Shown here: positions 136 to 17,170 of the stretch, one piece after another
Position numbering within the stretch: position 1 is the stretch's first letter
Layout: each line of letters opens with the position of its first letter
Virus record (IMG/VR): IMGVR_UViG_3300019124_000038
Location: 1 to 64,000 of that record
Source: a virus
Reading direction: 5' to 3' (one strand)
DNA: 64,000 nucleotides
Translations under genes and position numbers: made by a program
Notes under the pieces: generated by a model
The model's database searches: none
What the model saw: only the letters and a program-made list of their open reading frames with translations
What the model was told of the DNA's origin: nothing

Positions 136-1635
136 TTATGCTCGAACTGCCGCGTAGCGATCAGATTCCAGCACATCCAGCATCATCTCGTATGCTGTCT
201 TCATGCGACCTGCGAGGAGGTTTGTGAAGATAGTCGGAGATGCACCAGAGACCAGTTGTACACCAGCATCATTGAAAGTCAACGGAGTATTGCCCGCCGA
301 AGCGTTTACATTCCAGAAGACCAGATCAGGCATAGCGTATCCAGCCGATTCGTAGCGTTGACGCAGATTCTCGAAGAGAGCTTTATCATTCCCACCATCC
401 ACAGCGCGGTCGAATTGCATGTCCGAGATAATGTACACTCGGCTGACCATTTCATCAGCAGGGATGCGCTTATTGATAGCCGTGTTCAAGATGAGATCAA
501 ATGCCGCTTCGATGTTTGTATTCAAGTCCCAGTAAGCTCGGGAGATATTGCAAACCTTCTCAACGAATGTCTCACCTTGGAGCTTCACAAGGTCAGGACG
601 CTCAGAGAACGTCAGGATGTGGTTGTGGAACTCGCCACGGTTACGCTCTGCCGCGTAGATGCTCAGACCAAGCGCAATCTCAGCAGGGAGACCACGCATA
701 GAATACGAAACGTCCAGCATGACGAGCGCGTTATCAGTACGGCCACCGAAGTAGTCAGGCTGTGCATTCCATAGTGCGTTTACTGTATCCTTATCGGTCA
801 TTAGAGATGCATCGTAGACGATATTATACTTTCCACGATAAATGGATTCCATTCGAGAAGGGATTCGACGAACGAGTTCGTAGGGGAACAGTGTTCCAGC
901 GTTGATCTTCGCCTTTCCGTTCTCTACATCATTAATGAATGCAGTATATCCGTTTGGACGATGACGATCAAAAGCGTCACTGTAAATCAGGCTTGCCTTT
1001 GAAGGAACTTTTTCGAAGTCGATCTTATCCCACTCACCAGCAGACATGAGACGTTCAACCACGTTGATACGCTCACGAAGCGTAGAGAGAGCCTTACGGT
1101 ATGCCTTAGATGACAGCCCGAGATGCTTGCGTGTTTTACGGGCAAGGCGGCGTGTTTCGGTAGACGATGCGTTTTCCGATTTTAGCCATTTGCCGAGTAG
1201 AGATGGATGTCCTGATTCAAGATCAACTAAGAATTGCTTTTTGATGATCTCTGCCGCGACATCTTCCAGAGTGGTATCGAACAGAACGTACAGCATGTCC
1301 CAACGACCGTATTCGGGAATGAGATGCGCGTTAAGTGCTACCAGCTCAGGCTTGTTTACAACCAGCCACTTGACGAGACGAGCGAAAGTGTTTCGTTCAC
1401 CTTGACCGCCGCGAACATCGTAGCCGTAGAACAGAGCCTTCATAGCCAGCAGTCGATCTTCACCGATGGCTTTCGAGAATGCTGTGGTCAGCGCGTAGTC
1501 ATTAAGATTACGTGCAGAACCAACAATCCCAAAGAAGTCCAGAACGTCAGAGTTGGTAGTGCGGTAAGCCCGCGCTCCATTTGCCGTGTAGCCTACGTTA
1601 GTAGCATCACGGAGGGCTGTCAGCATGTTTGTCAT
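136..1635 (-). CDS. DUF2828-type Ro60/TROVE-like helical-repeat + vWA protein
   Basis: T.NGA.AY.TT, DVRGGQGER, IPEYGRWD, GKWLKSE, KINAGTLFPYE, MIDAS DVSYSM, ISDMQFD, VFWNV motifs. Confidence 0.85.
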   Translation of the reverse strand: MTNMLTALRDATNVGYTANGARAYRTTNSDVLDFFGIVGSARNLNDYALTTAFSKAIGEDRLLAMKALFYGYDVRGGQGERNTFARLVKWLVVNKPELVALNAHLIPEYGRWDMLYVLFDTTLEDVAAEIIKKQFLVDLESGHPSLLGKWLKSENASSTETRRLARKTRKHLGLSSKAYRKALSTLRERINVVERLMSAGEWDKIDFEKVPSKASLIYSDAFDRHRPNGYTAFINDVENGKAKINAGTLFPYELVRRIPSRMESIYRGKYNIVYDASLMTDKDTVNALWNAQPDYFGGRTDNALVMLDVSYSMRGLPAEIALGLSIYAAERNRGEFHNHILTFSERPDLVKLQGETFVEKVCNISRAYWDLNTNIEAAFDLILNTAINKRIPADEMVSRVYIISDMQFDRAVDGGNDKALFENLRQRYESAGYAMPDLVFWNVNASAGNTPLTFNDAGVQLVSGASPTIFTNLLAGRMKTAYEMMLDVLESDRYAAVRA

Positions 1636-1668: not shown

Positions 1669-1761
1669 TAGGCACATGACTTTGAGGAGTCGAACCTCGG
1701 GTAGTTTCCTTGAAAGGGAAATTTAGCATCCACGCTAAGTCAGAGTTGCTGTAAGTGCCTA
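1669..1761 (-). ncRNA. Y-like RNA unit 1 with nested tRNA-Glu-like cloverleaf
   Basis: TAGGCAC/GTGCCTA stem, CTTACAGCAA, TGACTT/AAGTCA stem, TTTCC-CTTTCAA-GGAAA, GAGG-TTCGACT-CCTC. Confidence 0.7.
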
Positions 1762-1773
1762 AAATCAATTGAC

Positions 1774-1841
1774 AAGACGCATCATTCACCTTTGTCAGAT
1801 TAGCAGTCTGATGTATATTATAGGTTTGCTGTAAGCGTCTT
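1774..1841 (-). ncRNA. Y-like RNA unit 2 with Ser(GCT) anticodon stem-loop
   Basis: AAGACGC/GCGTCTT stem, CTTACAGCAA, TCAGA-CTGCTAA-TCTGA. Confidence 0.7.
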
Positions 1842-1932
1842 TTACACGTTTGGGCGCTCGTTCAATATCGAACCGCCTAGCTGTGCGATTCCTCTTTCGG
1901 AGTGCCAAATGAGCTGTTAGCCGTGAGCCATC

Positions 1933-2038
1933 TAGGTGCGAATGTTGGAAGGGGAGGGGCTTAGTCAGAGATTCTTTTAGGTTCTTCAATGTTTTGAATT
2001 GAGTTATCCGTTACGATATCATCTGCTGTAAGCACCTA
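1933..2038 (-). ncRNA. Y-like RNA unit 3
   Basis: TAGGTGC/GCACCTA stem, CTTACAGCAG, inner TCAAT-7 nt-ATTGA. Confidence 0.65.
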
Positions 2039-2050
2039 AGCTCACACGTT

Positions 2051-2122
2051 TGGTCGAGACACATTACTTGGGCTCTTGTCCTGTTTAAGAGGGCATATAG
2101 TATGTGTTGCTGTTCGTGTCTC
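2051..2122 (-). ncRNA. Y-like RNA unit 4 (CCA-terminated)
   Basis: GAGACAC/GTGTCTC stem, CGAACAGCAA, 3' GACCA. Confidence 0.65.
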
Positions 2123-2132
2123 TCACGTTTAC

Positions 2133-2197
2133 AAGGCGCAATCCATGTTTTCATCCAGTTGAAAGAAAGAGATAGGGTTGATTGCTGTTCGCGCCTT
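2133..2197 (-). ncRNA. Y-like RNA unit 5
   Basis: AAGGCGC/GCGCCTT stem, CGAACAGCAA. Confidence 0.65.
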
Positions 2198-2227
2198 TAG
2201 GTTATCGCATAGTCTTTACAGGTTAAG

Positions 2228-2347
2228 TTACCATTCGTAGATGACTTTTCCGTCATTGCGGATGAAACACACCACAGCACCATTCGAGTTCTCAATCCAG
2301 CCTTTAAAACCAGTATTGGAGCCCTTGGAGTACTCTTTGTATACCAT
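2228..2347 (-). CDS. 39-aa hypothetical protein (not in ORF track)
   Basis: AGGAGG RBS; MVYKEYSKGSNTGFKGWIENSNGAVVCFIRNDGKVIYEW. Confidence 0.65.
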   Translation of the reverse strand: MVYKEYSKGSNTGFKGWIENSNGAVVCFIRNDGKVIYEW

Positions 2348-2372
2348 CTCACTAACCTCCTAATGGCTAATT

Positions 2373-2459
2373 TGGTACGACTGGAGAGACTTGAACTCTC
2401 ACGCCACAGAGGACACTCGGGTCTGAGCCGAGCGCGTATTCCGATTCCGCCACAGTCGC
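2373..2459 (-). tRNA. tRNA-Leu(CAG)
   Basis: cloverleaf, CTCGG-CTCAGAC-CCGAG, long variable arm, CCA. Confidence 0.93.
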
Positions 2460-2462
2460 ATA

Positions 2463-2548
2463 TGGTGGGAGAAGAGAGATTCGAACTCACTAAGCCATAG
2501 GCAATGGATTTACAGTCCACCGTAACTCTCCATCGTTACCGCTCTCCC
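2463..2548 (-). tRNA. tRNA-Tyr(GTA)
   Basis: TGGA-CTGTAAA-TCCA, long variable arm, CCA. Confidence 0.93.
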
Positions 2549-2736
2549 ATATTAGAGTCGCATTTTTGAGGATAATGCGGAACCCCCACGATCTAAACCT
2601 TATTAGGTAGGAGCTTGTGGTCAGCACCTTGGAGTATCCGACGCAAAACTATTTCCCTGCTTTGCCCCGCAGGATAGTTATGAGCAAGGGTATCCATGCA
2701 AACCCCTTGCGTCGATTGGGGAGGTTTAGCGTAATA

Positions 2737-2819
2737 TGGTGGAGTGGACAGGATTCGAACCTGTGATTCAACGGCTAATTAACCGTTCGCCTTCGTTCCA
2801 TTCTCGGCTATCCTACTCC
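2737..2819 (-). tRNA. atypical tRNA with 8-nt anticodon loop and bulged acceptor stem
   Basis: intact T-arm ACAGG-TTCGAAT-CCTGT and CCA; AACGG-TTAATTAG-CCGTT. Confidence 0.6.
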
Positions 2820-2824
2820 ACATA

Positions 2825-2902
2825 TGGTATGGATGCAGGGATTCGAACCCTGGACCTCTCACTCCCAAGGCGAGCGTTCTGACCAAGCTGAACTACATCC
2901 AT
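2825..2902 (-). tRNA. tRNA-Pro(TGG)
   Basis: CTCGC-CTTGGGA-GTGAG, CCA. Confidence 0.93.
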
Positions 2903-3014
2903 ATAAAATTGGCGAGCCAAACCCTCTATTACCAAACACTCGCCTGTCTGCATCCCCTGAAAGTGCAGAGTTTCCCAAGGTTAGAATGGAAGGAGAGACA
3001 AGCTCCCCGAACCG

Positions 3015-3335
3015 TTAGTTTTGAATCTTGTTAGTCAGGTTGTCAATCTCCTGCAAGATCGGTGCGAGTTGCTGGAGAGAAGCCTGAACTTGTTTCTGAG
3101 TTGCGTCGATGTTCGTTTGCAACATCTGGAATTGCATAGCCAGCATTGCCATCGACGGGTCTTGTGTCTGAGAAAGCATCTGTGCAATTTGTTGCATCTG
3201 CACTTCAATGCCGTCAAAGTTGTTTGCCGCCATCATTGCCTGATTGACCAGACCCCGTGCCGCTGTTACCTGTGCGTCGATCTGATCGCCAGTACGTGCC
3301 GCCTTCATTCCTGTGTTGAATCCAAAGTTCATCAT
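3015..3335 (-). CDS. 106-aa Gln/Met/Ala-rich coiled-coil hypothetical protein
   Basis: purine-rich RBS before ATG 3335; the longer ORF-track start overlaps tRNA-Trp. Confidence 0.7.
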   Translation of the reverse strand: MMNFGFNTGMKAARTGDQIDAQVTAARGLVNQAMMAANNFDGIEVQMQQIAQMLSQTQDPSMAMLAMQFQMLQTNIDATQKQVQASLQQLAPILQEIDNLTNKIQN

Positions 3336-3392
3336 CCTAAATCCCTTCCTTTTCCCTTGTAGTTTTTTTACGTTGTGCTCCCGAGGGAGCTT

Positions 3393-3471
3393 TGGCAAGG
3401 GCAGTAGGAATCGAACCTACCACACAATCCTTTGGAGGGATCGTCGCCTAATCCTTGGTACATGTGCCCCT
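3393..3471 (-). tRNA. tRNA-Trp(CCA), irregular D-arm
   Basis: GATCC-CTCCAAA-GGATT, T-arm GTAGG-TTCGATT-CCTAC, CCA. Confidence 0.85.
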
Positions 3472-3526
3472 ATGTTTGCAGTCCCTTTCGAGACCGTGAC
3501 GTGATGTTTTGTTATCTTATACTCAT

Positions 3527-3555
3527 ATTATATCAGCTTGTCCCATGATTGTCAA
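3527..3555 (-). promoter_or_regulatory. sigma-A consensus promoter
   Basis: TTGACA-17 nt-TATAAT. Confidence 0.85.
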
Positions 3556-3742
3556 GGAAGAACTTTTCAGCTTCCTTTCTGCCAGTTTGACGAGCTGACT
3601 TCTTCAATCGACGGTTAGCAGGATGATGCTTGTCTACCGCAGGATGCTTGCTTCCGTGGTCAAGACAGTTGGTTCGCCCATAGTGGATGCAGACTAAGCA
3701 AATTTGACGATCTCTGCGCTTCATTCCGTATGGTTTCATCAT
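3533..3742 (-). CDS. 69-aa basic hypothetical protein with CxxC/His
   Basis: MMKPYGMKRRDRQICLVC...KKSARQ; the ORF-track start overlaps tRNA-Leu. Confidence 0.6.
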   Translation of the reverse strand: MMKPYGMKRRDRQICLVCIHYGRTNCLDHGSKHPAVDKHHPANRRLKKSARQTGRKEAEKFFLDNHGTS

Positions 3743-3765
3743 GACGCCGCCTTTTGAAGTTTGTG

Positions 3766-3844
3766 TGGTGCTACTGGAGGGAGTCGAACCCATCACTTGT
3801 ACAGATTTTAAGTCTGGTGCGTCTGCCAATTGCGCCACAGTAGC
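3766..3844 (-). tRNA. tRNA-Leu(TAA), short variable region
   Basis: CAGA-CTTAAAA-TCTG, CCA. Confidence 0.9.
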
Positions 3845-3960
3845 ATGGAAGTTGCCCGTTTTCTATTAAGGGATTAAACGGAGCCGAAAACAACCGTGCT
3901 GTTCATCTACTGGAGTAGATGGGGGTGTATAAGACCCGTGCGTCAGAACATACGCACTAT

Positions 3961-4034
3961 TGGAGCGGTGTACGGGAATCTAACCCGTGTTGCCCGCTTG
4001 GAAGGCGGGAGCACAAACACTATACCAACACCGC
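3961..4034 (-). tRNA. tRNA-Gly(TCC)
   Basis: CCCGC-CTTCCAA-GCGGG; variant T-loop TTAGATT; CCA. Confidence 0.88.
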
Positions 4035-4152
4035 ATGTGGCGACGTGCTTGGACTTCGAAGTCCAGCTCCTATAAGCACACGTCATGGGCTGGAACGGCA
4101 GAGAATCTTTAACCCTGCTATTTACGCCACGTACTTTGTAGGGCGACCAGCA

Positions 4153-4254
4153 TGATACGTCCGTAGAGGGCTTGAACCTCTCAATGGCAGGAATGCCACG
4201 CAAGCGTTTGACCAACCTGTCATTTCCACTTCGCTCTCCTAACGAGCACGGACG
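4153..4254 (-). ncRNA. tRNA-like RNA without canonical anticodon loop
   Basis: CGTCCGT/ACGGACG acceptor, GCTC/GAGC D-arm, TGGCA/TGCCA variable arm, AGAGG-TTCAAGC-CCTCT T-arm. Confidence 0.55.
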
Positions 4255-4260
4255 ATGATT

Positions 4261-4352
4261 TGGCAGTAGGTAGGGGATTCGAACCCCTGAACCAGATTTC
4301 TCCAGTTGGCAGTTTAGCAAACTGCTGGTTTCAACCACTCACCCAACCTACT
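4261..4352 (-). tRNA. tRNA-Ser(GCT)
   Basis: GCAGT-TTGCTAA-ACTGC, long variable arm, CCA. Confidence 0.93.
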
Positions 4353-4408
4353 ATAGTCGAATATTAAACCACATGCTTCCAAACATATCTGGCTCTCCTT
4401 TCCACGTT

Positions 4409-4502
4409 TGGCGGGAGCGAGGAGATTCGAACTCCTGCACGACATCTCTGCCGCCTAGCTGTTTTCAAGACAGTTCCCTTTTATCCGCTTGGGTACGCTC
4501 CC
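4409..4502 (-). tRNA. tRNA-Ser(TGA)
   Basis: CTGT-CTTGAAA-ACAG, long variable arm, CCA. Confidence 0.93.
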
Positions 4503-4513
4503 GTATTGACTTA

Positions 4514-4906
4514 TGAGATACAAGCTATAAGCCACGTTCTGTCCGCTGTGCTTCAAGCGACTAGTCAGGTCTCGCACTATGCGTGACAATCATCTAACTA
4601 GGTCATACGACCTCTGGTTGTTGGTTCATTTCCCTTCCGACCAGTTCCCCGACCATTGTTTGGGTTTCACACAAGAGGGGTTTACCGCGTTTCACCCGCT
4701 CCGTTTCCAGAGCGATTCGTCACTGTGGCACTTTACGACCGCCACAACCATCTAATCTTCGATTAGTACAGGTCGTGATTCATGTCGCCGTCAGTAGTTT
4801 CCTACTGCCAGAGCTTATTAGGCTCTGCTCTCGAACTCCTACCATCTCAGGCAGGGTGTGCGTGGACTTTCCTCACCTTTCGGCGCGATTGTCCGCTTGT
4901 ATCTCA
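4514..4906 (-). ncRNA. rnpB: RNase P RNA, bacterial type B
   Basis: P1 GAGATACAAGC/GCTTGTATCTC; GAGGAAAGTCCACGC; CTGAGATG; AAAGTGCCACAGTGACG; GAAACGCGGTAAACCCCTC; GAAACCCAAA; TAGATGATTG; ACAGAACGTGGCTTATA. Confidence 0.93.
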
Positions 4907-4980
4907 CGTAACGACGATTCCATTTACATCATGTCAATGCAGACTAATAAATGAGTTGTCTATCGTCAAACCTATCTCGC

Positions 4981-5057
4981 TGGTGACGCATGAGGGGTTC
5001 GAACCCTCGATCTCCACCTTGAAAGGGTGGCGACTTATCCAACTTGTCCAATGCGCC
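4981..5057 (-). tRNA. tRNA-Glu(TTC)
   Basis: CCACC-CTTTCAA-GGTGG, CCA. Confidence 0.93.
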
Positions 5058-5060
5058 ATA

Positions 5061-5140
5061 TGGGGTGAGTGACGGGAATCGAACCCGCGACACCCTGAGT
5101 CACAGTCAGGTATGCGATACCAACACGCATCACACTCAAC
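5061..5140 (-). tRNA. tRNA-His(GTG)
   Basis: CCTGA-CTGTGAC-TCAGG, G-1/C73, CCA. Confidence 0.9.
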
Positions 5141-5183
5141 ATCTTTCAAATTCCTTACTCGACCACTCAAAGCCAGTGTTTTT

Positions 5184-5774
5184 TTAGTACAAACCGTAAA
5201 CGGTAGTTCGTGTTCCGGGGGAGATCATTGGCATTACTCCAGCGTTAAACTCAGGCAAGATGACATCAAGAGGAACGAAGTAATGGTAGTTCACTGTCTG
5301 CACAGTATAAATCCCATCAAGTGCAACCGTAGTCACCGTTTCCCCTCTTTCTACTAACATCGTATGTTTGTTGGGGAAACTAACCTGCGTTTCGTCATCG
5401 AATCTGGAAATCCATTTCTCTACAGTGCCATCTTCACGGAATCTTGTCTCTGTATAGAAACCAGACTCATTGTTGTGAATGTCAAAAGATTCTAGCATCA
5501 CATATGTTGCCAATTGACTAACCCCATCCGTAACCATGAACGGTCGAAATACAGGGTCATCCGCCATGAAATTCCAATCGTAGTCGAACATAACGATCTT
5601 TGGATGGTAGTGATACTTTCCTTCTTGGAGAGAGTAGAGACTAACACCGTCTGATTCGTAGTAATGACCGTCAATTTCGTCTGTTTCGCCAGCATGTGCA
5701 CTTGCGAGACTTGGCGTGAATGCTACCGCCATTGTCAATAGAATTGCTGTGAGTGTTTTCAAGATTTTGTTCAA
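5184..5774 (-). CDS. secreted YHYH-motif protein
   Basis: signal peptide ending ASA-H, HAGETDEIDGH...YHYH motif, AAGGAG RBS. Confidence 0.75.
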   Translation of the reverse strand: MNKILKTLTAILLTMAVAFTPSLASAHAGETDEIDGHYYESDGVSLYSLQEGKYHYHPKIVMFDYDWNFMADDPVFRPFMVTDGVSQLATYVMLESFDIHNNESGFYTETRFREDGTVEKWISRFDDETQVSFPNKHTMLVERGETVTTVALDGIYTVQTVNYHYFVPLDVILPEFNAGVMPMISPGTRTTVYGLY

Positions 5775-5852
5775 AGCCGCATTGCTCCTTTTGTTTTAAG
5801 AGTCTGGCTTTGAGTGTTTCTTTGTTGCTCTATCTTGTTGCTTGTCGAGTTT

Positions 5853-5928
5853 TGGTTGCTACGCGCTGGAATTGAACCAGCTTGACAAAGGTTATGAGCC
5901 TTCGTGAGATACCTACCTCCCGCCAGCT
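5853..5928 (-). tRNA. tRNA-Met(CAT), initiator-like
   Basis: AAGG-CTCATAA-CCTT; unpaired 1:72; irregular acceptor stem; CCA. Confidence 0.75.
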
Positions 5929-5933
5929 ATATA

Positions 5934-6009
5934 TGGGGCAACCAAGTGGAATTGAACCACCGACCTATCCCTTATCAGGGGATTGCTCTACCAACTGAGC
6001 TATGGTTGC
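5934..6009 (-). tRNA. tRNA-Ile(GAT)
   Basis: ATCCC-CTGATAA-GGGAT, CCA. Confidence 0.92.
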
Positions 6010-6196
6010 ACGTTATATGCAGATCATCTAACCGTCTGCCCACTGTGGGGTCTAACTATGATCTGCGTCGAGACTTCGGGGCGCATGTTTTAGGCAAGTG
6101 CCAGCCCATACATGTATTTCCCATTTTTCGCCTGTCTCGAAGTTTTTCCCCCATTTCTGCACTCCATAAGCACTTCGGAGCAGAGGAACGGTTTTT

Positions 6197-6275
6197 TGGA
6201 GCGATAGACGGGATTCGAACCCGCGGGCCTCCGCATTGGCAATGCGGCACTCTAAGCCGACTGAGCTACTATCGC
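6197..6275 (-). tRNA. tRNA-Gly(GCC)
   Basis: CCGCA-TTGCCAA-TGCGG, CCA. Confidence 0.92.
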
Positions 6276-6278
6276 ATA

Positions 6279-6355
6279 TGGCGTATCCTACAGGATTCGA
6301 ACCTGTGACCTCTGGCTCCGCAAGCCATTGCTCTTGTCCACTGAGCTAAGGATAC
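6279..6355 (-). tRNA. tRNA-Arg(GCG)
   Basis: TGGC-TTGCGGA-GCCA, CCA. Confidence 0.9.
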
Positions 6356-6356
6356 A

Positions 6357-6433
6357 TGGCACACCGTAAGGGATTCGAACCCCTGACACGCTGGTTCGAA
6401 GCCAGACGCTCTAGTCCTCTGAGCTAACGGTGC
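6357..6433 (-). tRNA. tRNA-Arg(TCG)
   Basis: CTGG-CTTCGAA-CCAG, CCA. Confidence 0.9.
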
Positions 6434-6437
6434 ATAT

Positions 6438-6512
6438 TGGTGGAGAAGACGGGACTTGAACCCGCGACCCTTCGCTTGCAAGGCGAATGCTCTACCTCTG
6501 AGCTACTTCCCC
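6438..6512 (-). tRNA. tRNA-Ala(TGC)
   Basis: TTCGC-CTTGCAA-GCGAA, G3-U70, CCA. Confidence 0.95.
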
Positions 6513-6625
6513 ATATTAGTGGACACTAGAAACCCCTAACCTCATGCCCGTTGGTTTTCTTTGACGCGCGTGGGCGGCTTTCGCCGTTCCCGTTTGCTCG
6601 GCAAGGACTCCGTTATTAAGTCATT

Positions 6626-6712
6626 TGGTGTGACTAGAGAGACTTGAACTCTCATGACCTTGCGGTCACTACACCCTCAATGTAGCGCGTATGCCAATTC
6701 CGCCATAGTCAC
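6626..6712 (-). tRNA. tRNA-Leu(GAG)
   Basis: CTACA-TTGAGGG-TGTAG, long variable arm, CCA. Confidence 0.93.
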
Positions 6713-6815
6713 ATGCGAAGCTAGGACAATTCTCAGAGTCACCGATTTCCATGTCCAAGGTTTCCGCATCGAGCAGGTTTACCTTCGGTGATTCGCCTAC
6801 AGTCTGAGTCTTATT

Positions 6816-6891
6816 TGGTAGGAGTGAAGGGATTCGAACCCCCGACTTCTTGCTTGTAAGGCAAGCACTCTTCTCGCTGAGTTACACTCCC
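6816..6891 (-). tRNA. tRNA-Val(TAC)
   Basis: CTTGC-CTTACAA-GCAAG, CCA. Confidence 0.93.
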
Positions 6892-6896
6892 ATATC

Positions 6897-6971
6897 TGGT
6901 GCTCCCTAGAGGACTCGAACCTCTGACCTTCACCACGTCAAGGTGACACTCTGCCACTGAGTTAAGGAAGC
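6897..6971 (-). tRNA. tRNA-Val(GAC)
   Basis: TCACC-TTGACGT-GGTGA, CCA. Confidence 0.93.
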
Positions 6972-7059
6972 AAGTTTTGATCGTCTCGGTGAGGAGCGTC
7001 ACCCGCAGGTGTCTCCTCTAAGCTGTCCAGCTCATTCACGAGAATTTGAGACGATCATT

Positions 7060-7135
7060 TGGTGGCTCGTACTGGACTTGAACCAGTGACTTCTTCCTTA
7101 TGAGGGAAGCACTCTACCAACTGAGTTAACGAGCC
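7060..7135 (-). tRNA. tRNA-Met/Ile2(CAT)
   Basis: CTTCC-CTCATAA-GGAAG, CCA; Met versus lysidine-Ile not resolved. Confidence 0.9.
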
Positions 7136-7233
7136 ATTAGGCGAGAGTTTCATGGAAGGGCTGACTAGTATTGCCTTCGACAAAGGATTCCCTTCGCTCT
7201 CATGGGCGAAAGTATCTCTCGAACCTTTTTTGT

Positions 7234-7309
7234 TGGTGACGGGTACTGGAATCGAACCAGTGACGCAAGGATTTTCAGCCCTTCGCTCTACCTACTGAGC
7301 TAACCCGCC
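7234..7309 (-). tRNA. tRNA-Phe(GAA)
   Basis: AAGGG-CTGAAAA-TCCTT, CCA. Confidence 0.93.
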
Positions 7310-7312
7310 ATA

Positions 7313-7388
7313 TGGCTACAGGGATGGGACTCGAACCCACGACCACGAGATTAACAGTCCCGCGCTCTACCAACTGAGCTACCCTGCA
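7313..7388 (-). tRNA. tRNA-Asn(GTT)
   Basis: CGGGA-CTGTTAA-TCTCG, CCA. Confidence 0.93.
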
Positions 7389-7482
7389 ATAATTAATGAT
7401 GAGGTAAACTCCAGATCAAACCCTCATCCCCGCACCCTCATCGGCTTCTGCACATGTGTACGCATGTGGCGGGTTTCCCTTT

Positions 7483-7560
7483 TGGTGCGCCCTGCTGGAC
7501 TCGAACCAGCGACCCTCCGATTAAAAGTCGGATGCTTACTACCATCTGAGCTAAGGACGC
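7483..7560 (-). tRNA. tRNA-Lys(TTT)
   Basis: TCCGA-CTTTTAA-TCGGA, CCA. Confidence 0.93.
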
Positions 7561-7569
7561 ATATTAGAT

Positions 7570-7665
7570 TCTAAGAGTGCGCCTACCATCTAGGCGGTTG
7601 GGACGGCTATGCGTGACCCCACCGAGGAATCGAACCCCTATTTTGCATTTTTCGCTACCCTTAGA
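7570..7665 (-). ncRNA. circularly permuted tRNA mimic (YrlA-type Y RNA topology)
   Basis: closing stem TCTAAGGGT/ACTCTTAGA, then T-arm GGGG-TTCGATT-CCTC, capped acceptor-like stem, D-arm GCCTA-GATGG-TAGGC. Confidence 0.6.
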
Positions 7666-7668
7666 TTT

Positions 7669-7742
7669 TGGCGGTTCTGACGGGAATCGAACCCGCGACC
7701 TTCGATGGACAGTCGAGAATTTTGCCATTAAACTACAGAACC
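7669..7742 (-). tRNA. tRNA-Asp(GTC)
   Basis: TCGA-CTGTCCA-TCGA, CCA. Confidence 0.92.
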
Positions 7743-7744
7743 AT

Positions 7745-7819
7745 TGGCGGGGGATGTGGGGGTCGAACCCACGACACTCGGAGTCAAAGTCCGATGCTCT
7801 ACCACTGAGCTAATCCCCA
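7745..7819 (-). tRNA. tRNA-Gln(TTG)
   Basis: TCGGA-CTTTGAC-TCCGA, CCA. Confidence 0.93.
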
Positions 7820-7898
7820 ATATTTGGAACTCACTTCGTCACATTGACTAGCTATGACAGAGTGGAGTCAGACTCTCGAACTGGGTCACAGTTCTACA

Positions 7899-7975
7899 TG
7901 GTGCTGGTGACAGGAATCGAACCTGCGACCTTCTGCTTACAAGGCAGTTGCACAACCAACGAGTGCTTCACCAGC
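7899..7975 (-). tRNA. tRNA-Thr(TGT)
   Basis: CTGC-CTTGTAA-GCAG, CCA. Confidence 0.92.
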
Positions 7976-7998
7976 ATGTCTTGTTATCTTATATCTGT

Positions 7999-8027
7999 AT
8001 TATACCATCTAGCCAGTAGGCTGTCAA
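7999..8027 (-). promoter_or_regulatory. sigma-A consensus promoter of the main tRNA operon
   Basis: TTGACA-17 nt-TATAAT with extended TG. Confidence 0.85.
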
Positions 8028-8069
8028 GGAAGTTTGTGGAAATCTTTCACTGACTAGATGATATAAGCA

Positions 8070-8261
8070 CTACTCTGTCAGGTTAGTGTAGCATTCTCCT
8101 CCAGCCGCAACCCAATCAGTCGCGTACTTTTGCAGAGAATCCCAAACTACCTGCGGGTCAGTTGTGCGATGACCACGAACGATGACGGTTCCGTCGCACC
8201 AAAGCTCCAGAACTGTTTCTCCGCTCTTGTCGGCCATACTGAACAGTTGAGTAATACCCAT
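8070..8261 (-). CDS. 63-aa hypothetical protein
   Basis: AAAGGAGGTG RBS. Confidence 0.7.
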   Translation of the reverse strand: MGITQLFSMADKSGETVLELWCDGTVIVRGHRTTDPQVVWDSLQKYATDWVAAGGECYTNLTE

Positions 8262-8349
8262 CTAGCTCCACCTCCTTTTCTGTGGCAAGAACAGATACTT
8301 CTTGGGGTCGAACATTTGATGCTATGGGTGACACCATTTACTTCGGTAG

Positions 8350-8535
8350 GTGTCGTACCGCCGCGAGTCGAATCTTACACTCCCTGCGGTCGAGAGCTTG
8401 AGAGGTGACTTGCTTCGGGGAAACCCGCCAACTTTGGAAACCAAGCTGACGTAAAACCCGAAGCCGCCCGTCTTGACTCGTTTACCCCCGAGGAGACGAA
8501 TGAATGGCGTTTGGGGAGATTCGACGTACTCTTGC
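8350..8535 (-). ncRNA. 6S-like long irregular hairpin RNA
   Basis: about 185 nt; GTCGAATCT/AGATTCGAC, GCTTCGGG/CCCGAAGC, CGTCAGCTT/AAGTTGGCG; TCACCT and 3' GCGGCGG words. Confidence 0.45.
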
Positions 8536-8540
8536 ACGTT

Positions 8541-8616
8541 TGGAGCACCGAGTCGGAATCGAACCGACGAATGGCAGGATTTGCAGTCCTGTTGCTCAAC
8601 CATTGAGCATCGGCGC
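8541..8616 (-). tRNA. tRNA-Cys(GCA)
   Basis: CAGGA-CTGCAAA-TCCTG, U73, CCA. Confidence 0.92.
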
Positions 8617-8755
8617 ATAGAGAACATCGGGGCATCACCTACATCCCCGATGCACGTTGTTGGAGGGAGGGGGAGTTCCCTCCAAGGTTATTTCAGCACA
8701 CATAAGATTTACACCCGTTGTTAGGCACTCACGGTTTGGCTTATCTTATGAATAT

Positions 8756-8784
8756 ATTATAACCTATCTCCAACCGATTGTCAA
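8756..8784 (-). promoter_or_regulatory. sigma-A consensus promoter
   Basis: TTGACA-17 nt-TATAAT. Confidence 0.85.
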
Positions 8785-8794
8785 GGACGGTCGA

Positions 8795-8998
8795 TTAGTC
8801 GCAACCTCCGCCGCCAGAAGAACCACTGTCCGAAGATGATGAACTGCTATCTGAAGACCATGAGCTACCTGAACCCCAATCAGTTCCGTATGTGTAGTTG
8901 CTGGAGCTGGAGCTGGAGCTGGAGCTGGAGCTGGAGCTGGAGTTTCGACGACGACGCTCCTCTTCTTCTCGGCGACGACGACGTTCTGCTTCTGTCAT
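8795..8998 (-). CDS. 67-aa low-complexity Arg/Glu/Ser-rich protein
   Basis: AAGGAGG RBS and own upstream promoter. Confidence 0.65.
   Translation of the reverse strand: MTEAERRRRREEEERRRRNSSSSSSSSSSSSSSNYTYGTDWGSGSSWSSDSSSSSSDSGSSGGGGCD
8901..8942. repeat. (CTGGAG)x7 tandem repeat encoding poly-Ser
   Basis: read directly from sequence. Confidence 0.95.
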
Positions 8999-9092: not shown

Positions 9093-9118
9093 AAAAAGAA
9101 AGGGCACTAAGCCCTTTC
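9093..9118 (-). terminator. intrinsic terminator
   Basis: GAAAGGGC-TTAGT-GCCCTTTC plus T-run. Confidence 0.75.
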
Positions 9119-9932
9119 AAGTATTACTTGTCATTTCCACCAAGGAACCAACTTCAAAAATATACTCCTCGCCAATCTCTGCAATTTTAATTCCCGCTCC
9201 ATGAATCTCTTCCCACTTATCATGAACATTATCGGGATAATGCATGATATAAGTACGCTTTCGCTGATCGGCGGGAAGAGCCAACAGATCATTCAAGGAA
9301 GCGTGAACTTTTCCTTCCCCATCGTAGAAGCCACAATCATGGAACATAGCCACCATTCCATCTTTCATTGCCATATCAACAAGTGTTGGGTTAAGCAGAG
9401 CATCGCCAGAGTACATGATATACTTCTCGCCTTCGCCGATGAATAGTCCAAAAGACTGCTTGTTTTTGACATGGTAAGTTGGGAATACCGAGAACATCAC
9501 TCCATTAAAGTCGAAAAATCGACCAGTACGGTCAACGATCTCAAATGTGAAATAGTCCTTGAAGCTCAGGTTCCCCTCTTCCGCTTTTGCCATCGTACCC
9601 TTCAGCGTCTCGTTCCACAGTTCTGTCTTGATACGCTCAGACGGTAAGATTAGGTGTGGCTTGCGCTGGAGTGTGTAGCGACCATAAAATCCTGCTTCTT
9701 CAAGACCGTGGGTATGATCTCCGTGGTTGTGCGTGACGAAGATCGCGTCGATATCTTCCCATTTAACCCCTGCCATGTCAAGGTAGAGCGGTACAAGACC
9801 GCCGCAGTCAATCAGGATACGCTTGGTAATCCCATTGTTTTTAACTGTGACAAGGCATGAAGTGTGACCATACTTCTTGCTCCATGCTCCGCCAGTTCCA
9901 ATGAACTTCATCGTCACTACTGCCATTTTCAC
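9117..9932 (-). CDS. apyc1: MBL-fold hydrolase, anti-Pycsar Apyc1-like cyclic nucleotide phosphodiesterase
   Basis: GTGGAWSKK, LIDCG, THNHGDH.GLEE, LWNETLKG, FHDC, VHASLNDL, MHYPDN motifs as recalled for the Apyc1 family. Confidence 0.75.
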   Translation of the reverse strand: MKMAVVTMKFIGTGGAWSKKYGHTSCLVTVKNNGITKRILIDCGGLVPLYLDMAGVKWEDIDAIFVTHNHGDHTHGLEEAGFYGRYTLQRKPHLILPSERIKTELWNETLKGTMAKAEEGNLSFKDYFTFEIVDRTGRFFDFNGVMFSVFPTYHVKNKQSFGLFIGEGEKYIMYSGDALLNPTLVDMAMKDGMVAMFHDCGFYDGEGKVHASLNDLLALPADQRKRTYIMHYPDNVHDKWEEIHGAGIKIAEIGEEYIFEVGSLVEMTSNT

Positions 9933-13107: not shown

Positions 13108-13755
13108 ATGACACACGAAGAAAAAGAAATCAAGACCCTTGTGATCGCGGCGCAAAAGGCAGAAGATCGAGAAGATAGAAGAGTTCTCGTGAGCATCATC
13201 CTGACTAAGCTGAAACCATTCCGTCATGCACTTGCAAAACGATTCTCAGGTAAAGGAGTGGAGTTCGATGATATTGTGCAAGAACTCGATATGAAGCTAA
13301 TCGAAGCGATCTACGACTACGATGAAACACTAGACCCTAGTGCGTTAAGACACGTCACCGCTAAGACGCGAAACGGAGTTTGGAACTACTACCGAAAAAT
13401 GATGAACTATTTTGACGACAACAAGCGGGAACTCAGTCTGAGTGCAGAATTTGGAGAATACCAGTATGGGTCACGGTGGTTTTACCCGCTGGATCAATTG
13501 GAGGATACTGCGTGGGATGAGGAAACGATTGTCCAAAGATTGGCAGTAGAAGAGGAGTTAGCAAAGCTAACCCCCCATCAACAGCGAGTATTACAGATGT
13601 ACTTCATCGAAGATCGAACTCAGTACGATGTAGCCGAGGAACTGAGTATCACACAAGCGAATGTGTCTCGCGCAAAGAATCGCGCTATTTCGCAACTTCG
13701 GACAGCCCTCTTGCCCGAGGATGAGACGACTGAAACGCCTGAGCAAGCCGATTAG
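13108..13755 (+). CDS. sigma-70-family RNA polymerase sigma factor (SigF/G/B-like size)
   Basis: region 2 A.RFSGKGVEFDDIVQE...LIEAIYDYD; region 4 LTPHQQRVLQMYF...TQYDVAEELSITQANVSR; AAGGAG RBS. Confidence 0.88.
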   Translation: MTHEEKEIKTLVIAAQKAEDREDRRVLVSIILTKLKPFRHALAKRFSGKGVEFDDIVQELDMKLIEAIYDYDETLDPSALRHVTAKTRNGVWNYYRKMMNYFDDNKRELSLSAEFGEYQYGSRWFYPLDQLEDTAWDEETIVQRLAVEEELAKLTPHQQRVLQMYFIEDRTQYDVAEELSITQANVSRAKNRAISQLRTALLPEDETTETPEQAD

Positions 13756-14575
13756 TCGCTACATGCGTGTAAATCTGAGTCGTTGCGATATCACTGTGAC
13801 CAAGTTGGCTTTGAATGAAACGAATATCCGCTCCTCCTTCCAACATATGAGTGGCGCAAGAGTGGCGGAAGATGTGAGGATAAAGACCTTCATCATGACG
13901 CTTTACTGCGTTTTGTACAGTCTTAGTGGTCATTGGTTGATCGTGTCGATCTTTGTACTTGCTTGCGAAGACATAGGCGGATTCGAAACCGCGCTCTGCA
14001 AGGTGCTCCTTAACAGCACGAACAGCCGAATCGGTCAATGGAACGATACGCTCTTTGTTACCCTTGCCAATCAAACGGACAACACTCATGGAGCCACCCT
14101 CAATTTCAATGTCGAAAATGTCTGTTGACTTAATCCCAACGAGTTCTTCTGCTCGGCAACCAGTCCCGTAGAGAACTTCAAGGATAGCACAGTCGAGTTT
14201 CGCTTGCTTGGTATCACCCTTTGCGCTGTCGAGAACCTTAATTGCTTTCTCTTGCGTCATGACTTTTGGTAGCCGCTTCTCTACCTTGGCGTTTTCGATC
14301 ATCCGCGCAGGGTTACGGTCGATAACCCCTTCCTTGACCAAGTAATCCCCAAACTTACGAATCGCCGATAGTTTTCGGTTGCGTGTTTTAGCCACGTCGC
14401 CCTTTTCGATTCGCTGGCGCAAGAATGCAATAATCGACTCTTTCGTAAATGACTCCAGAGTAGAAACAACTTCGGTGAATTGTCTCAGGTCAGTGCGGTA
14501 GTTGCGGATTGTATGCCCTGCCGCATTGCACTCGATCAGCATGTAATCGAGAAATTGATCGACTTTGTGTTCCAT
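13685..14575 (-). CDS. XerC/XerD-like tyrosine recombinase
   Basis: LYGTGCRAEEL, GKGNKERIVP, PHIFRHSCATHML, LGHSDIATTQIY. Confidence 0.95.
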   Translation of the reverse strand: MEHKVDQFLDYMLIECNAAGHTIRNYRTDLRQFTEVVSTLESFTKESIIAFLRQRIEKGDVAKTRNRKLSAIRKFGDYLVKEGVIDRNPARMIENAKVEKRLPKVMTQEKAIKVLDSAKGDTKQAKLDCAILEVLYGTGCRAEELVGIKSTDIFDIEIEGGSMSVVRLIGKGNKERIVPLTDSAVRAVKEHLAERGFESAYVFASKYKDRHDQPMTTKTVQNAVKRHDEGLYPHIFRHSCATHMLEGGADIRFIQSQLGHSDIATTQIYTHVATNRLAQAFQSSHPRARGLSEVAK

Positions 14576-14806
14576 TCGAATCACTCCCGCATCAAAGTTT
14601 CTGATAACATATTACCACCGTTTTCCACGAACGTCAATGTCAAATGGAATAAAAATCGTGTCGTTCAGAAGTTTGGGAAACAGGTAGGCAATGCCTGTTC
14701 TATGCCAATCGCATAGCATCTCCCCCTATTGGAAGGTCGGGAGGTCGCGGTTCATCCCCCTGACCCGACTTCTTGACCAATTTTTTACCCAAAGGAGGTA
14801 GACCAC

Positions 14807-15484: not shown

Positions 15485-17170
15485 ATGAATACCGATTTCC
15501 AATTCATGTCGCAGGAGGAGCAAGGCTCGATTACATCAGAGCAACGCGCTATGCTGGACTTCTTTCATAAGAATCCAGATGTAGCGGCGGCAACGCTCCT
15601 TGTCAGAAACGATAAGCCGTTGCGGTTAGCTGTACACCAACGGCTTATTATTCGTGGTCTTTGGCGATATCAATTTAACCTCCTGATCTTGACCCGTGGT
15701 GGAGGTAAGACATTCCTTCTTGCACTCTACTGTGTGCTGAAAGCCATGCTATTTCCACGGGAAAAATGCGTAGTGGCTTCAAGCTCTTACCGTCAGGCGC
15801 AGTTTACGTTTGACGAGATTATTAAGATTTACGAGGAATCACCGCTTCTACGACAAGCATGTACCAAACCACCAGCCAAAGGCCCTAATTCATGTGAGAT
15901 GCACTTGGAGAATGGCTCAAAGGTTATCGCATATCCACTCGGTGACGGTCAGAAAATTCGTGGTGCTCGTGCGAACACCCTCGTAATGGACGAAGTGGCT
16001 CAAATTCCTTCTGAGATTATTAACCTCGTAATCCTTCCGATGATGAACACACGACAAGACCCATTCGACACATCAGGTCGCAAGAACCATTTGGTTATGG
16101 CAAGTTCTGCTTACTTCCAGTTCAATCACTTGTATGACCGATACCGTCAGTATCAAGAAAAGACAAACCCAAGTAGTCCAGAGTTTGATGATGCCTATGG
16201 GTTGCATGTCTACACGGTAGACGATATGCCCGATGGGTGGATGGATGAAAAGATTATTGCGGAAGCTCGTGCGACCCTGACTGAATTGCAATTCATGATG
16301 GAGTACATGTGTATTTTCCCTCCTGATTCTGATGGATTCTTCCCTGCGGCATTAGTAAATGGTGCTCGTAAACAATCGGTTATTATCGAGCCAACTGGAG
16401 AAAAGGGTGCTGAGTATGTATTCGGAATTGACCCGGCTCGTAGTGGTGACAACTTTGCTTTGGTTGTAATTAAACTTGATACGACTGGCTCGGGAAGCCC
16501 ACGCAACAAAGTTGTGGCATGTTACTCACTACATCGCCACACATTCCCACAGATGCACGAATTCATTCGTTATCAACTTCGCAACTATGAGAGCAATGGC
16601 GGTAAGGTCGTTCGTATTCAGATGGACAACGGCGGCGGCGGTCAAACGCTCCGAGATTTACTCGCCGAAGAGTTTGCTTGGTTCAATGAAGAGACCGAAA
16701 GATGGGAGACCATGCCAGCAATCGTTGATATGGACAATGAGGAGTTTGAATTCCTTTCAGGTCGCAGAATTCTTCGTATGCAAGTTTTTGGCTCTCAGTC
16801 CATTAATACCATGAACTATGACCTGCGGGCTGATCTTGAAAAAGGAAAGCTCTTAATCCCGATACAGCCGCCAAGCCACGAGGATGTATATGAGCGTCTG
16901 ATGAGGGAAATTGAAGACATGGTGCAAGAAACCATGACTATCGTTGCTACACCGAACAGTAAATCTGGATTCCTTCACTTTGACACACCAAAGCAACGCA
17001 TGAAGAAAGACCGCTATTCAGCACTTCTCATTGCGGCTCAAGGGGCAAGAGAATTGCAACGAGATTATGGCTCTCCTCCAGTTAAAAAACTGGCTAGAGG
17101 ATTCTCTAAAACATCATTGCTGAACCGTGGCTCTGGTGGCGGATTGAGAAGCGGGCACTTTCGAGGTTAG
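15485..17170 (+). CDS. terL: terminase large subunit
   Basis: RGGGKT Walker A, VMDE Walker B, FGIDPA nuclease motif, KDRYSA. Confidence 0.93.
   Translation: MNTDFQFMSQEEQGSITSEQRAMLDFFHKNPDVAAATLLVRNDKPLRLAVHQRLIIRGLWRYQFNLLILTRGGGKTFLLALYCVLKAMLFPREKCVVASSSYRQAQFTFDEIIKIYEESPLLRQACTKPPAKGPNSCEMHLENGSKVIAYPLGDGQKIRGARANTLVMDEVAQIPSEIINLVILPMMNTRQDPFDTSGRKNHLVMASSAYFQFNHLYDRYRQYQEKTNPSSPEFDDAYGLHVYTVDDMPDGWMDEKIIAEARATLTELQFMMEYMCIFPPDSDGFFPAALVNGARKQSVIIEPTGEKGAEYVFGIDPARSGDNFALVVIKLDTTGSGSPRNKVVACYSLHRHTFPQMHEFIRYQLRNYESNGGKVVRIQMDNGGGGQTLRDLLAEEFAWFNEETERWETMPAIVDMDNEEFEFLSGRRILRMQVFGSQSINTMNYDLRADLEKGKLLIPIQPPSHEDVYERLMREIEDMVQETMTIVATPNSKSGFLHFDTPKQRMKKDRYSALLIAAQGARELQRDYGSPPVKKLARGFSKTSLLNRGSGGGLRSGHFRG

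Follow-up and report, generated by a model that had tools for sequence, protein, structure and literature searches.

A type-B RNase P RNA gene within the tRNA array of an uncultured soil phage and its conservation in a second phage

We identified a full-length gene for a bacterial type-B RNase P RNA inside the tRNA array of an uncultured soil phage of roughly 160 kb. RNase P is the RNA enzyme that trims new tRNAs, and its RNA is among the few ribozymes common to all cellular life and is regarded as a core, vertically inherited gene. The phage gene is located in the window (the whole stretch of DNA that was analysed, 64,000 nucleotides long), which represents the start of a linear IMG/VR record from a biocrust metagenome (CheckV 76%). 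The RNA is an intact member of a known family, it resides in phage DNA, and a second phage carries it at the same position. From the sequence data we infer its transcription, catalysis, protein partner and benefit to the phage: this is probably a genuine phage type-B RNase P RNA that would be co-transcribed with the phage tRNAs, be active together with host RnpA, and raise or secure RNase P capacity.

An Rfam cmscan matched the model RF00011 (RNaseP_bact_b) to positions 4523-4900 on the minus strand with 238.2 bits (E 1e-68), the gathering cut-off of this model being 97 bits. The match covers model positions 1-365 of 365 and is untruncated, RF00011 is the top model of clan CL00002 at this position, and no other RF00011 match is present in the 146,499-base record. 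A two-part motif composed of CR-I and CR-II has a single occurrence in the window, compared with none in 100 shuffled sequences. The sequences flanking the Rfam match pair with each other and lengthen P1 by 13 continuous base pairs (duplex -21.1 kcal/mol), and the ends of the gene are therefore placed at approximately 4907 and 4513. A sequence-only reading of this DNA had proposed a bacterial type-B RNase P RNA with all hallmark regions at 4514-4906, between tRNA-Glu and tRNA-Ser. The proposal was borne out by the full-model match, its limits lie within one base of those derived from P1, and the two tRNA genes are found at 4981-5057 (upstream) and 4409-4502 (downstream), all on the minus strand. 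Since every sequence and structure test for the family gave a positive result, the RNA is assigned to the known family RF00011; the novelty lies in its location in a virus, amid its presumed substrates. The features of the gene are as follows.

4513-4907, minus strand: likely full RNase P RNA gene of approximately 395 nt with extended P1, delimited by the flank duplex
4523-4900, minus strand: core RF00011 match (238.2 bits; 80 of 87 pairs canonical; folding z -4.56)
4861-4874, minus strand: CR-I (GAGGAAAGUCC) and 5' strand of P4, with the bulged U35 at 4866; from the alignment, pairing with 4529-4536
4838-4855, minus strand: P5.1 hairpin, type-B specific, with six canonical pairs
4736-4787, minus strand: P10.1 extended hairpin, type-B specific, which folds on its own with -17.4 kcal/mol (z -3.1)
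4716-4735, minus strand: CR-II of the specificity domain (AAAGUGCCACAGUGACGAA), identical to the family consensus; from the motif search
4652-4654, minus strand: GGU of apical L15, RNA positions 247-249; from the alignment
4614-4644, minus strand: P15.1 hairpin, type-B specific, with 6 of 7 pairs canonical
4544-4583, minus strand: P19, type-B specific and longer than in the model; from alignment and folding
4529-4536, minus strand: 3' strand of the P4 pseudoknot, CR-V (ACGUGGCUUA), with eight hand-checked pairs to 4861-4869

The Rfam consensus structure was mapped onto the sequence to assess the integrity of the RNA. Canonical pairs are present at 80 of the 87 paired positions of the model, and the non-canonical ones are confined to the ends of helices and to the poorly aligned P10.1, a segment that refolds as a clean hairpin. 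The RNA is full length (approximately 395 nt) with complete P7-P12 and CR-II/CR-III, and the conserved regions CR-I, CR-II, CR-III and CR-V agree with the family consensus. P4 consists of eight pairs between RNA positions 32-40 and 365-372 with U35 bulged, and its C39-G366 pair stands in for the usual U-A, a compensated change. L9 and L12 are GAAA tetraloops, and P3 is unusually short, with 4 bp and a GAAA loop. The type-B helices P5.1, P10.1, P15.1 and P19 and the apical L15 are all aligned and paired. Unaligned stretches are limited to the tips of P10.1 (24 nt) and P19 (32 nt), both of which fold as hairpins, and there is no large unaligned insert that could hold the type-A helices P6, P13/P14 and P16/P17. 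In type-B enzymes two G residues of L15 pair with the 3'-CCA of the tRNA, a role that has been described for B. subtilis (PMC1874595).

Comparison with 85 distinct cellular type-B RNAs showed that, of the 126 columns conserved to 95% or more among them, the phage RNA has kept 118. Four of the eight changed columns form two compensated pairs, namely A-U to C-G in the pair closing P5.1 (C46-G63, where hosts invariantly have A-U) and U-A to G-U in P7. Two single-stranded positions that are invariant in hosts are altered as well: U67, and U304 in J18/2, which is presumably a region that contacts the protein. A single non-canonical pair was found among the 59 that are reliably paired in hosts and, measured against the commonest host pair, 19 double changes stand beside one broken pair. 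Judged by its sequence and predicted folding, the RNA looks functional.

The ribozyme gene is embedded in the tRNA array with the following surroundings.

1674-8616, minus strand: 27 tRNA genes for all 20 amino acids, the presumed substrates (ARAGORN)
7999-8027, minus strand: consensus sigma-A-type promoter, TTGACA-17 nt-TATAAT with TG (12/12), part of the family D7 repeat
4981-5057, minus strand: tRNA-Glu(UUC), upstream neighbour, CCA encoded (ARAGORN, Rfam)
4908-4980, minus strand: 5' spacer from tRNA-Glu to the ribozyme, diverged with indels in the second phage
4503-4512, minus strand: 10-nt linker from the extended P1 to the 5' end of tRNA-Ser, from the sequence
4409-4502, minus strand: tRNA-Ser(UGA), downstream neighbour, CCA encoded (ARAGORN, Rfam)

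CCA is encoded in 26 of the 27 tRNAs, the exception being a tRNA-Glu at 1674-1744 (minus strand). This tRNA-Glu and a tRNA-Trp at 3393-3469 (minus strand) were called by ARAGORN only and fall below the Rfam tRNA cut-off. A further tRNA-like element at 2737-2820 (minus strand; -31.1 kcal/mol, z -4.5) combines an acceptor stem and a T arm with an encoded CCA and a leader of UAU, and it received no tRNA call from ARAGORN or Rfam. The spacers between the tRNA genes are as short as 1-5 nt, in many cases, and the leaders mostly end in AU, often AUAU, with U usual at -1. U at -1 and A at -4 are favourable for the B. subtilis holoenzyme. Because the transcript would hold many tRNAs, many of them 1-5 nt apart, many RNase P cuts would be needed for its maturation.

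Perfect (12/12) sigma-A-type promoters are present on the minus strand at 8784-8756, 8027-7999 and 3555-3527. In the 5' spacer (4908-4980) no promoter of the ribozyme's own was found, with no candidate reaching 9/12, and the segment 4901-4980 shows no significant fold (z 0.05). Between 8027 and 2674 the minus strand has no terminator-like site. Based on the promoter consensus and this terminator-free stretch, the promoter at 7999-8027 most likely drives the ribozyme operon, with a transcript that would start near 7992 and carry 17 tRNAs ahead of the ribozyme. Among the sequencing runs listed as containing this stretch, no RNA run was found. Each of the three promoters lies in a copy of a 57-nt repeat (3504-3560, 7976-8032 and 8733-8789) with a perfect TTGACA-17-TATAAT on the minus strand, and the three repeats divide the tRNA array into separate transcription units.

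We propose that the ribozyme would be co-transcribed with the phage tRNAs from this consensus promoter, fold into an active ribozyme and borrow RnpA from the host. The phage RNA would thereby raise or secure RNase P capacity during infection, and the closely packed, CCA-encoding pre-tRNAs of the phage would then be cut at their 5' ends. The 3' end of the ribozyme itself may be set by RNase P cleavage at tRNA-Ser, which would leave a 10-nt 3' tail; the second phage retains 19 of the 20 bases in the 3' flank. Other genes near the array may also relate to RNA processing. Directly upstream of the array, a gene at 9117-9932 (minus strand) encodes a metallo-beta-lactamase-fold protein that matches the anti-Pycsar Apyc1 family with 103 bits, and an Apyc1-like gene occupies the same place in all three phages compared in this study. 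The metallo-beta-lactamase fold of Apyc1 is common to tRNase Z, and by this analogy a role of the protein in RNA processing is conceivable. Beyond window base 1, a gene for an RNase_T-family 3'-5' exonuclease (L159 16264-16905) is followed by one for a small acid-soluble spore protein (SASP; L159 18058-18243). This exonuclease could remove the tRNA trailers of 1-5 nt that remain after RNase P cleavage.

Two related phages were available for comparison. The second phage (L228) is represented by a 178-kb Logan contig from a different sequencing run and was reached via the SASP gene. Its gene order agrees with that of the window phage, its tRNA array is collinear, and an RF00011 match of 240 bits lies in the same place between tRNA-Glu and tRNA-Ser(UGA). 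The third relative (L161), a contig of 161 kb, comes from the draft genome assembly of Paenibacillus xylanexedens EDO6 (PMC6430313) and, among relatives whose carrier is known, it is the closest. Its terminase is 76% identical to that of the window phage and its tRNA array comprises about 24 genes. The array is similar to that of the window phage, yet no RNase P RNA was found in L161, in the parts seen, and the ribozyme gene is therefore apparently dispensable for this phage group.

A recent cellular donor of the gene was not found among 120 named Bacilli loci, 35 metagenome loci and two samples of 401 genomes, the best identity being 64-66%. The nearest cellular sequence (L182) is located on metagenome contig Ga0068898_10156578 and belongs to a Tumebacillaceae-like bacterium; its EcsA is 71% identical to Tumebacillaceae proteins, and the sequence is considered cellular because the housekeeping genes ecsA and ecsB adjoin its rnpB. 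The phage RNA and L182 are sisters in the tree (SH-aLRT 98-99) and have derived features that occur in these two only, among the sampled sequences: the motif GAGUUCG in J5.1/7, C-G as the closing pair of P5.1, G-U in P7 and the sequence of P19. This P19 sequence is also common to the second phage. Identity between the phage RNA and L182 amounts to 64% over shared model positions, with 52% at paired and 78% at unpaired positions. Pairing is kept by 31 compensatory double changes and is broken in six pairs of the phage RNA, most of which lie in the misaligned P10.1 or at helix ends. The branch leading to the phage is 4-6 times longer than that of L182, and the change along it may have taken place in phages, in an unsampled donor or in both. 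In L182 (4-496) rnpB lies 13 nt downstream of tRNA-Ser(GCU), and of 155 cellular loci this is the only one at which a tRNA adjoins rnpB. The phage gene thus resembles that of L182 in having an adjoining tRNA-Ser and differs from it in that L182 is cellular and 64% identical. A search for closer kin of L182 through its ecsA neighbour was unproductive, as Tumebacillus and Brevibacillus do not have rnpB beside ecsA.

The occurrence of the third relative in P. xylanexedens EDO6 suggests, by analogy, Paenibacillaceae as the likely host family of the window phage. All of the 81 sampled Paenibacillaceae genomes contain a type-A match above the cut-off (RF00010, 246-293 bits), and a type-B match above the cut-off was found in 0 of these 81. 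The RNase P RNA of Cohnella ginsengisoli, for example, is type A, with 265 bits for RF00010 and 34 bits for RF00011. The rnpB of Brevibacillus ruminantium is type B (258 bits), which places the boundary between the two classes within the spore-forming Bacilli. If the host is a member of the Paenibacillaceae, the phage ribozyme would be of another class than that of its host and would come from another lineage. A phylogenetic comparison with the host rnpB had been envisaged from the sequence alone. A tree with cellular type-B RNAs was obtained and places L182 as sister; the likely host family has type A, so that the comparison with the host would perhaps be one across classes.

A tentative extension of the proposal, which we regard as possible and somewhat short of an even chance, is that the host is indeed a type-A member of the Paenibacillaceae and that the type-B ribozyme, taken long ago from another lineage of Bacilli, would form a hybrid enzyme with host RnpA that works alongside the host enzyme or replaces it. 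Release of the ribozyme from the transcript might then occur partly through its own cleavage at the adjacent tRNA. If true, a universal ribozyme would here be replaced by a virus-encoded one that belongs to the other structural class.

The RNA could also be functional in another role: it might soak up host RnpA as a sponge and so starve tRNA maturation in the host, or it might be an enzyme specialised for the non-tRNA and tRNA-like (Y-like) RNAs of the array. In favour of such a role, the phage encodes a Ro-like protein, the array contains tRNA-like elements that are not called as tRNAs, no phage rnpA was found, and the third relative combines a YrlA-like match with a skipping-rope RNA. A sponge would need none of the conserved catalytic and substrate-binding elements, neither the specificity domain nor the CCA-binding GGU, all of which are retained. 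Specialisation on Y-like RNA is disfavoured by the third relative, which has a Ro-like gene and a Y-like RNA and, in the parts seen, no ribozyme, so that Ro and Y-like RNA on the one hand and the ribozyme on the other are not coupled. We therefore consider a role of this kind unlikely. The Ro-like RNA-binding protein (DUF2828 and DUF7788, phrog_850) is encoded at 136-1635 (minus strand) beside the array and is conserved in both related phages. In the third relative, the skipping-rope RNA (RF02924, 62 bits) lies inside the tRNA array at 13185-13281, and the weak YrlA-like (Y RNA) match lies at 16100-16203.

Regarding the protein partner, it had been noted from the window that no rnpA is visible, and this extends to the whole 146.5-kb record, in which no rnpA (PF00825) was found at E<=1; as the record is incomplete (CheckV 76%), an rnpA may lie elsewhere in the genome. 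Two ORFs in the array were considered as candidate partners. The ORF at 5184-5774 (minus strand) lies between tRNA-Ile and tRNA-His and encodes a protein of 196 aa that bears a clear signal peptide and matches no family; the second phage has an ORF of 186 aa at the same position of the array. It was rejected as it is a secreted acidic protein unlike RnpA. The ORF at 3015-3335 was rejected as well, as its product is Gln/Met-rich and coiled-coil-like rather than small and basic like RnpA. As no rnpA was found and the array ORFs are not RnpA-like, host RnpA is the likely partner of the phage RNA. A heterologous type-B RNA is known to function in B. subtilis (PMC1874595). That the ribozyme would instead use an unrecognised phage-encoded protein, or no protein, appears improbable to us: there are many small ORFs of no assigned function around and within the array and the record is incomplete, and against this reading both array ORFs examined are unlike the small basic RnpA.

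The comparison of the two phage copies indicates how the ribozyme evolves. Overall the RNAs of the window phage and the second phage are 91% identical and, outside P10.1, they differ at 10 of approximately 322 positions (97% identical), compared to 67-70% identity for the flanking protein genes and 70-78% for segments of the tRNA array. P10.1 is the sole fast-evolving part of the ribozyme between the two copies; it has diverged and still forms a hairpin in both. Three substitutions in helices all keep the pairing, and the second phage retains the extended P1, in which a single pair has changed from G-U to G-C. We regard the 97% identity of the core against approximately 70% for the flanks as the strongest evidence that the ribozyme is maintained by selection in these phages, and recent exchange between the two phages, as opposed to long purifying selection, could contribute to the near-identity.

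These observations bear on the idea that a captured rnpB is carried without function as a passenger or decaying relic. Such an origin would fit the absence of the gene from one related phage, in the parts seen, and the long branch of the phage RNA in the tree (1.2-2.2 versus a median of 0.08-0.14). It would also fit the score of 238 bits, which is below the 311-334 bits of many cellular, Bacillus-like copies. The score nevertheless falls within the cellular range, because the cellular rnpB of Brevibacillus reaches only 258 bits, and a relic would be expected neither to keep its helices through many compensatory changes nor to retain a core that is 97% identical between phages whose neighbouring genes are approximately 70% identical. 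We consider a passenger or relic very unlikely.

As the ribozyme lies only 4.5 kb from the end of the record, the possibility of a chimera, which had been named beforehand as a finding that would overturn the interpretation, was tested directly. Three assemblies agree on the locus, and two of them extend beyond window base 1 into phage genes. A Logan contig of 14.5 kb contains the ribozyme and extends 5.5 kb beyond window base 1, joining the ribozyme unbroken to the Ro-like gene and 5.5 kb of phage-type genes. An ENA contig of 150 kb contains the ribozyme as well, and the stretch fetched from it extends 10 kb beyond window base 1. The genes found there encode Mom, a cupin, ClpP, the RNase_T-family exonuclease and the SASP, together with many small ORFs. 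Within the window, a large terminase, a portal and a major head protein are encoded, as are a 2,744-aa ORF and an integrase (13685-14584). Read depth is equal on the two sides, at 12.6 for the tRNA part and 11.8 for the structural genes. Two further large phage contigs show synteny with the flanks of the array, which hold Metallophos and Apyc1-like genes at one end and those for the Ro-like DUF2828/DUF7788 protein, Mom and ClpP at the other. A tRNA within 300 nt of a type-B rnpB was found at 0 of 120 cellular genome loci and at 1 of 35 metagenome loci. The ribozyme gene is phage DNA, and the suspected host-phage chimera is contradicted by the continuation of the assemblies into phage genes, the even depth and the conserved synteny. 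A bacterial chromosomal segment joined to the phage by misassembly or at a prophage border is extremely unlikely, for the position near the end of the IMG/VR record, the break in the Logan assembly at 8888-8985 and the integrase, which could hint at it, are outweighed by contigs running from the ribozyme into phage-type genes, syntenic flanks, equal depth on both sides, the rarity of tRNAs beside cellular type-B genes and the lack of any cellular rnpB above approximately 66% identity.

The supposition that such genes are uncommon in phages agrees with our searches. Among 50,697 phage records no phage rnpB was found save in mislabelled host contigs, and exact-match motif scans of IMG/VR, which would miss diverged copies, found no type-B copy besides this record. 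Matches to one 16-mer in IMG/VR led to 10 contigs, none of which has an Rfam match. BLAST against the phage records of GenBank hit only unannotated 'UNVERIFIED_ORG' entries. Two of these, OR846587.1 and OR848730.1, filed as phages, contain rnpB and were rejected as host contigs because they are collinear with chromosomal loci of Enterococcus (one at 96%). Four further OR84-OR85 'UNVERIFIED_ORG' records from the same batch contain rnpB. A terminase-pattern scan of species genomes found no prophage relatives, and full-text literature searches found no paper on a phage-encoded RNase P RNA.

The phage RNA shares the architecture of the RNase P RNAs of B. subtilis and Geobacillus stearothermophilus, including P1-P5, P5.1, P7-P12, P10.1, P15, P15.1, P18 and P19, the apical L15 GGU, the bulged U in P4, CR-I to CR-V, a length of approximately 395 nt and a long P1. 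It differs from them in being phage-encoded and located inside a tRNA operon, in the lack of an rnpA in the genome record, in a P3 that is cut to 4 bp with a GAAA loop, in longer P10.1 and P19 helices, and in a few changes at host-invariant positions, mostly in compensated pairs. The rnpB genes of organelles (plastid and mitochondrial) are vertical remnants that are often reduced. As in organelles, a small genome keeps the RNA subunit and the protein partner would be encoded elsewhere; unlike the organellar genes, the phage copy appears to have been acquired horizontally by a virus. Phage T4 is not known to use any RNase P but that of its host, whereas the phage described here brings the catalytic subunit itself. 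In both cases polycistronic phage pre-tRNAs need RNase P, and processing of the T4 tRNA cluster by host RNase P is the classical system (PMC11143913).

A full-length rnpB that appears to be under strong selection in phages widens the known viral repertoire of genes related to translation. Should the host be a Paenibacillus, infection would amount to a natural experiment in which a type-A and a type-B RNA share one RnpA. The presence of the gene suggests that the maturation of tRNA 5' ends can be limiting for phages that express dozens of tRNAs at once.
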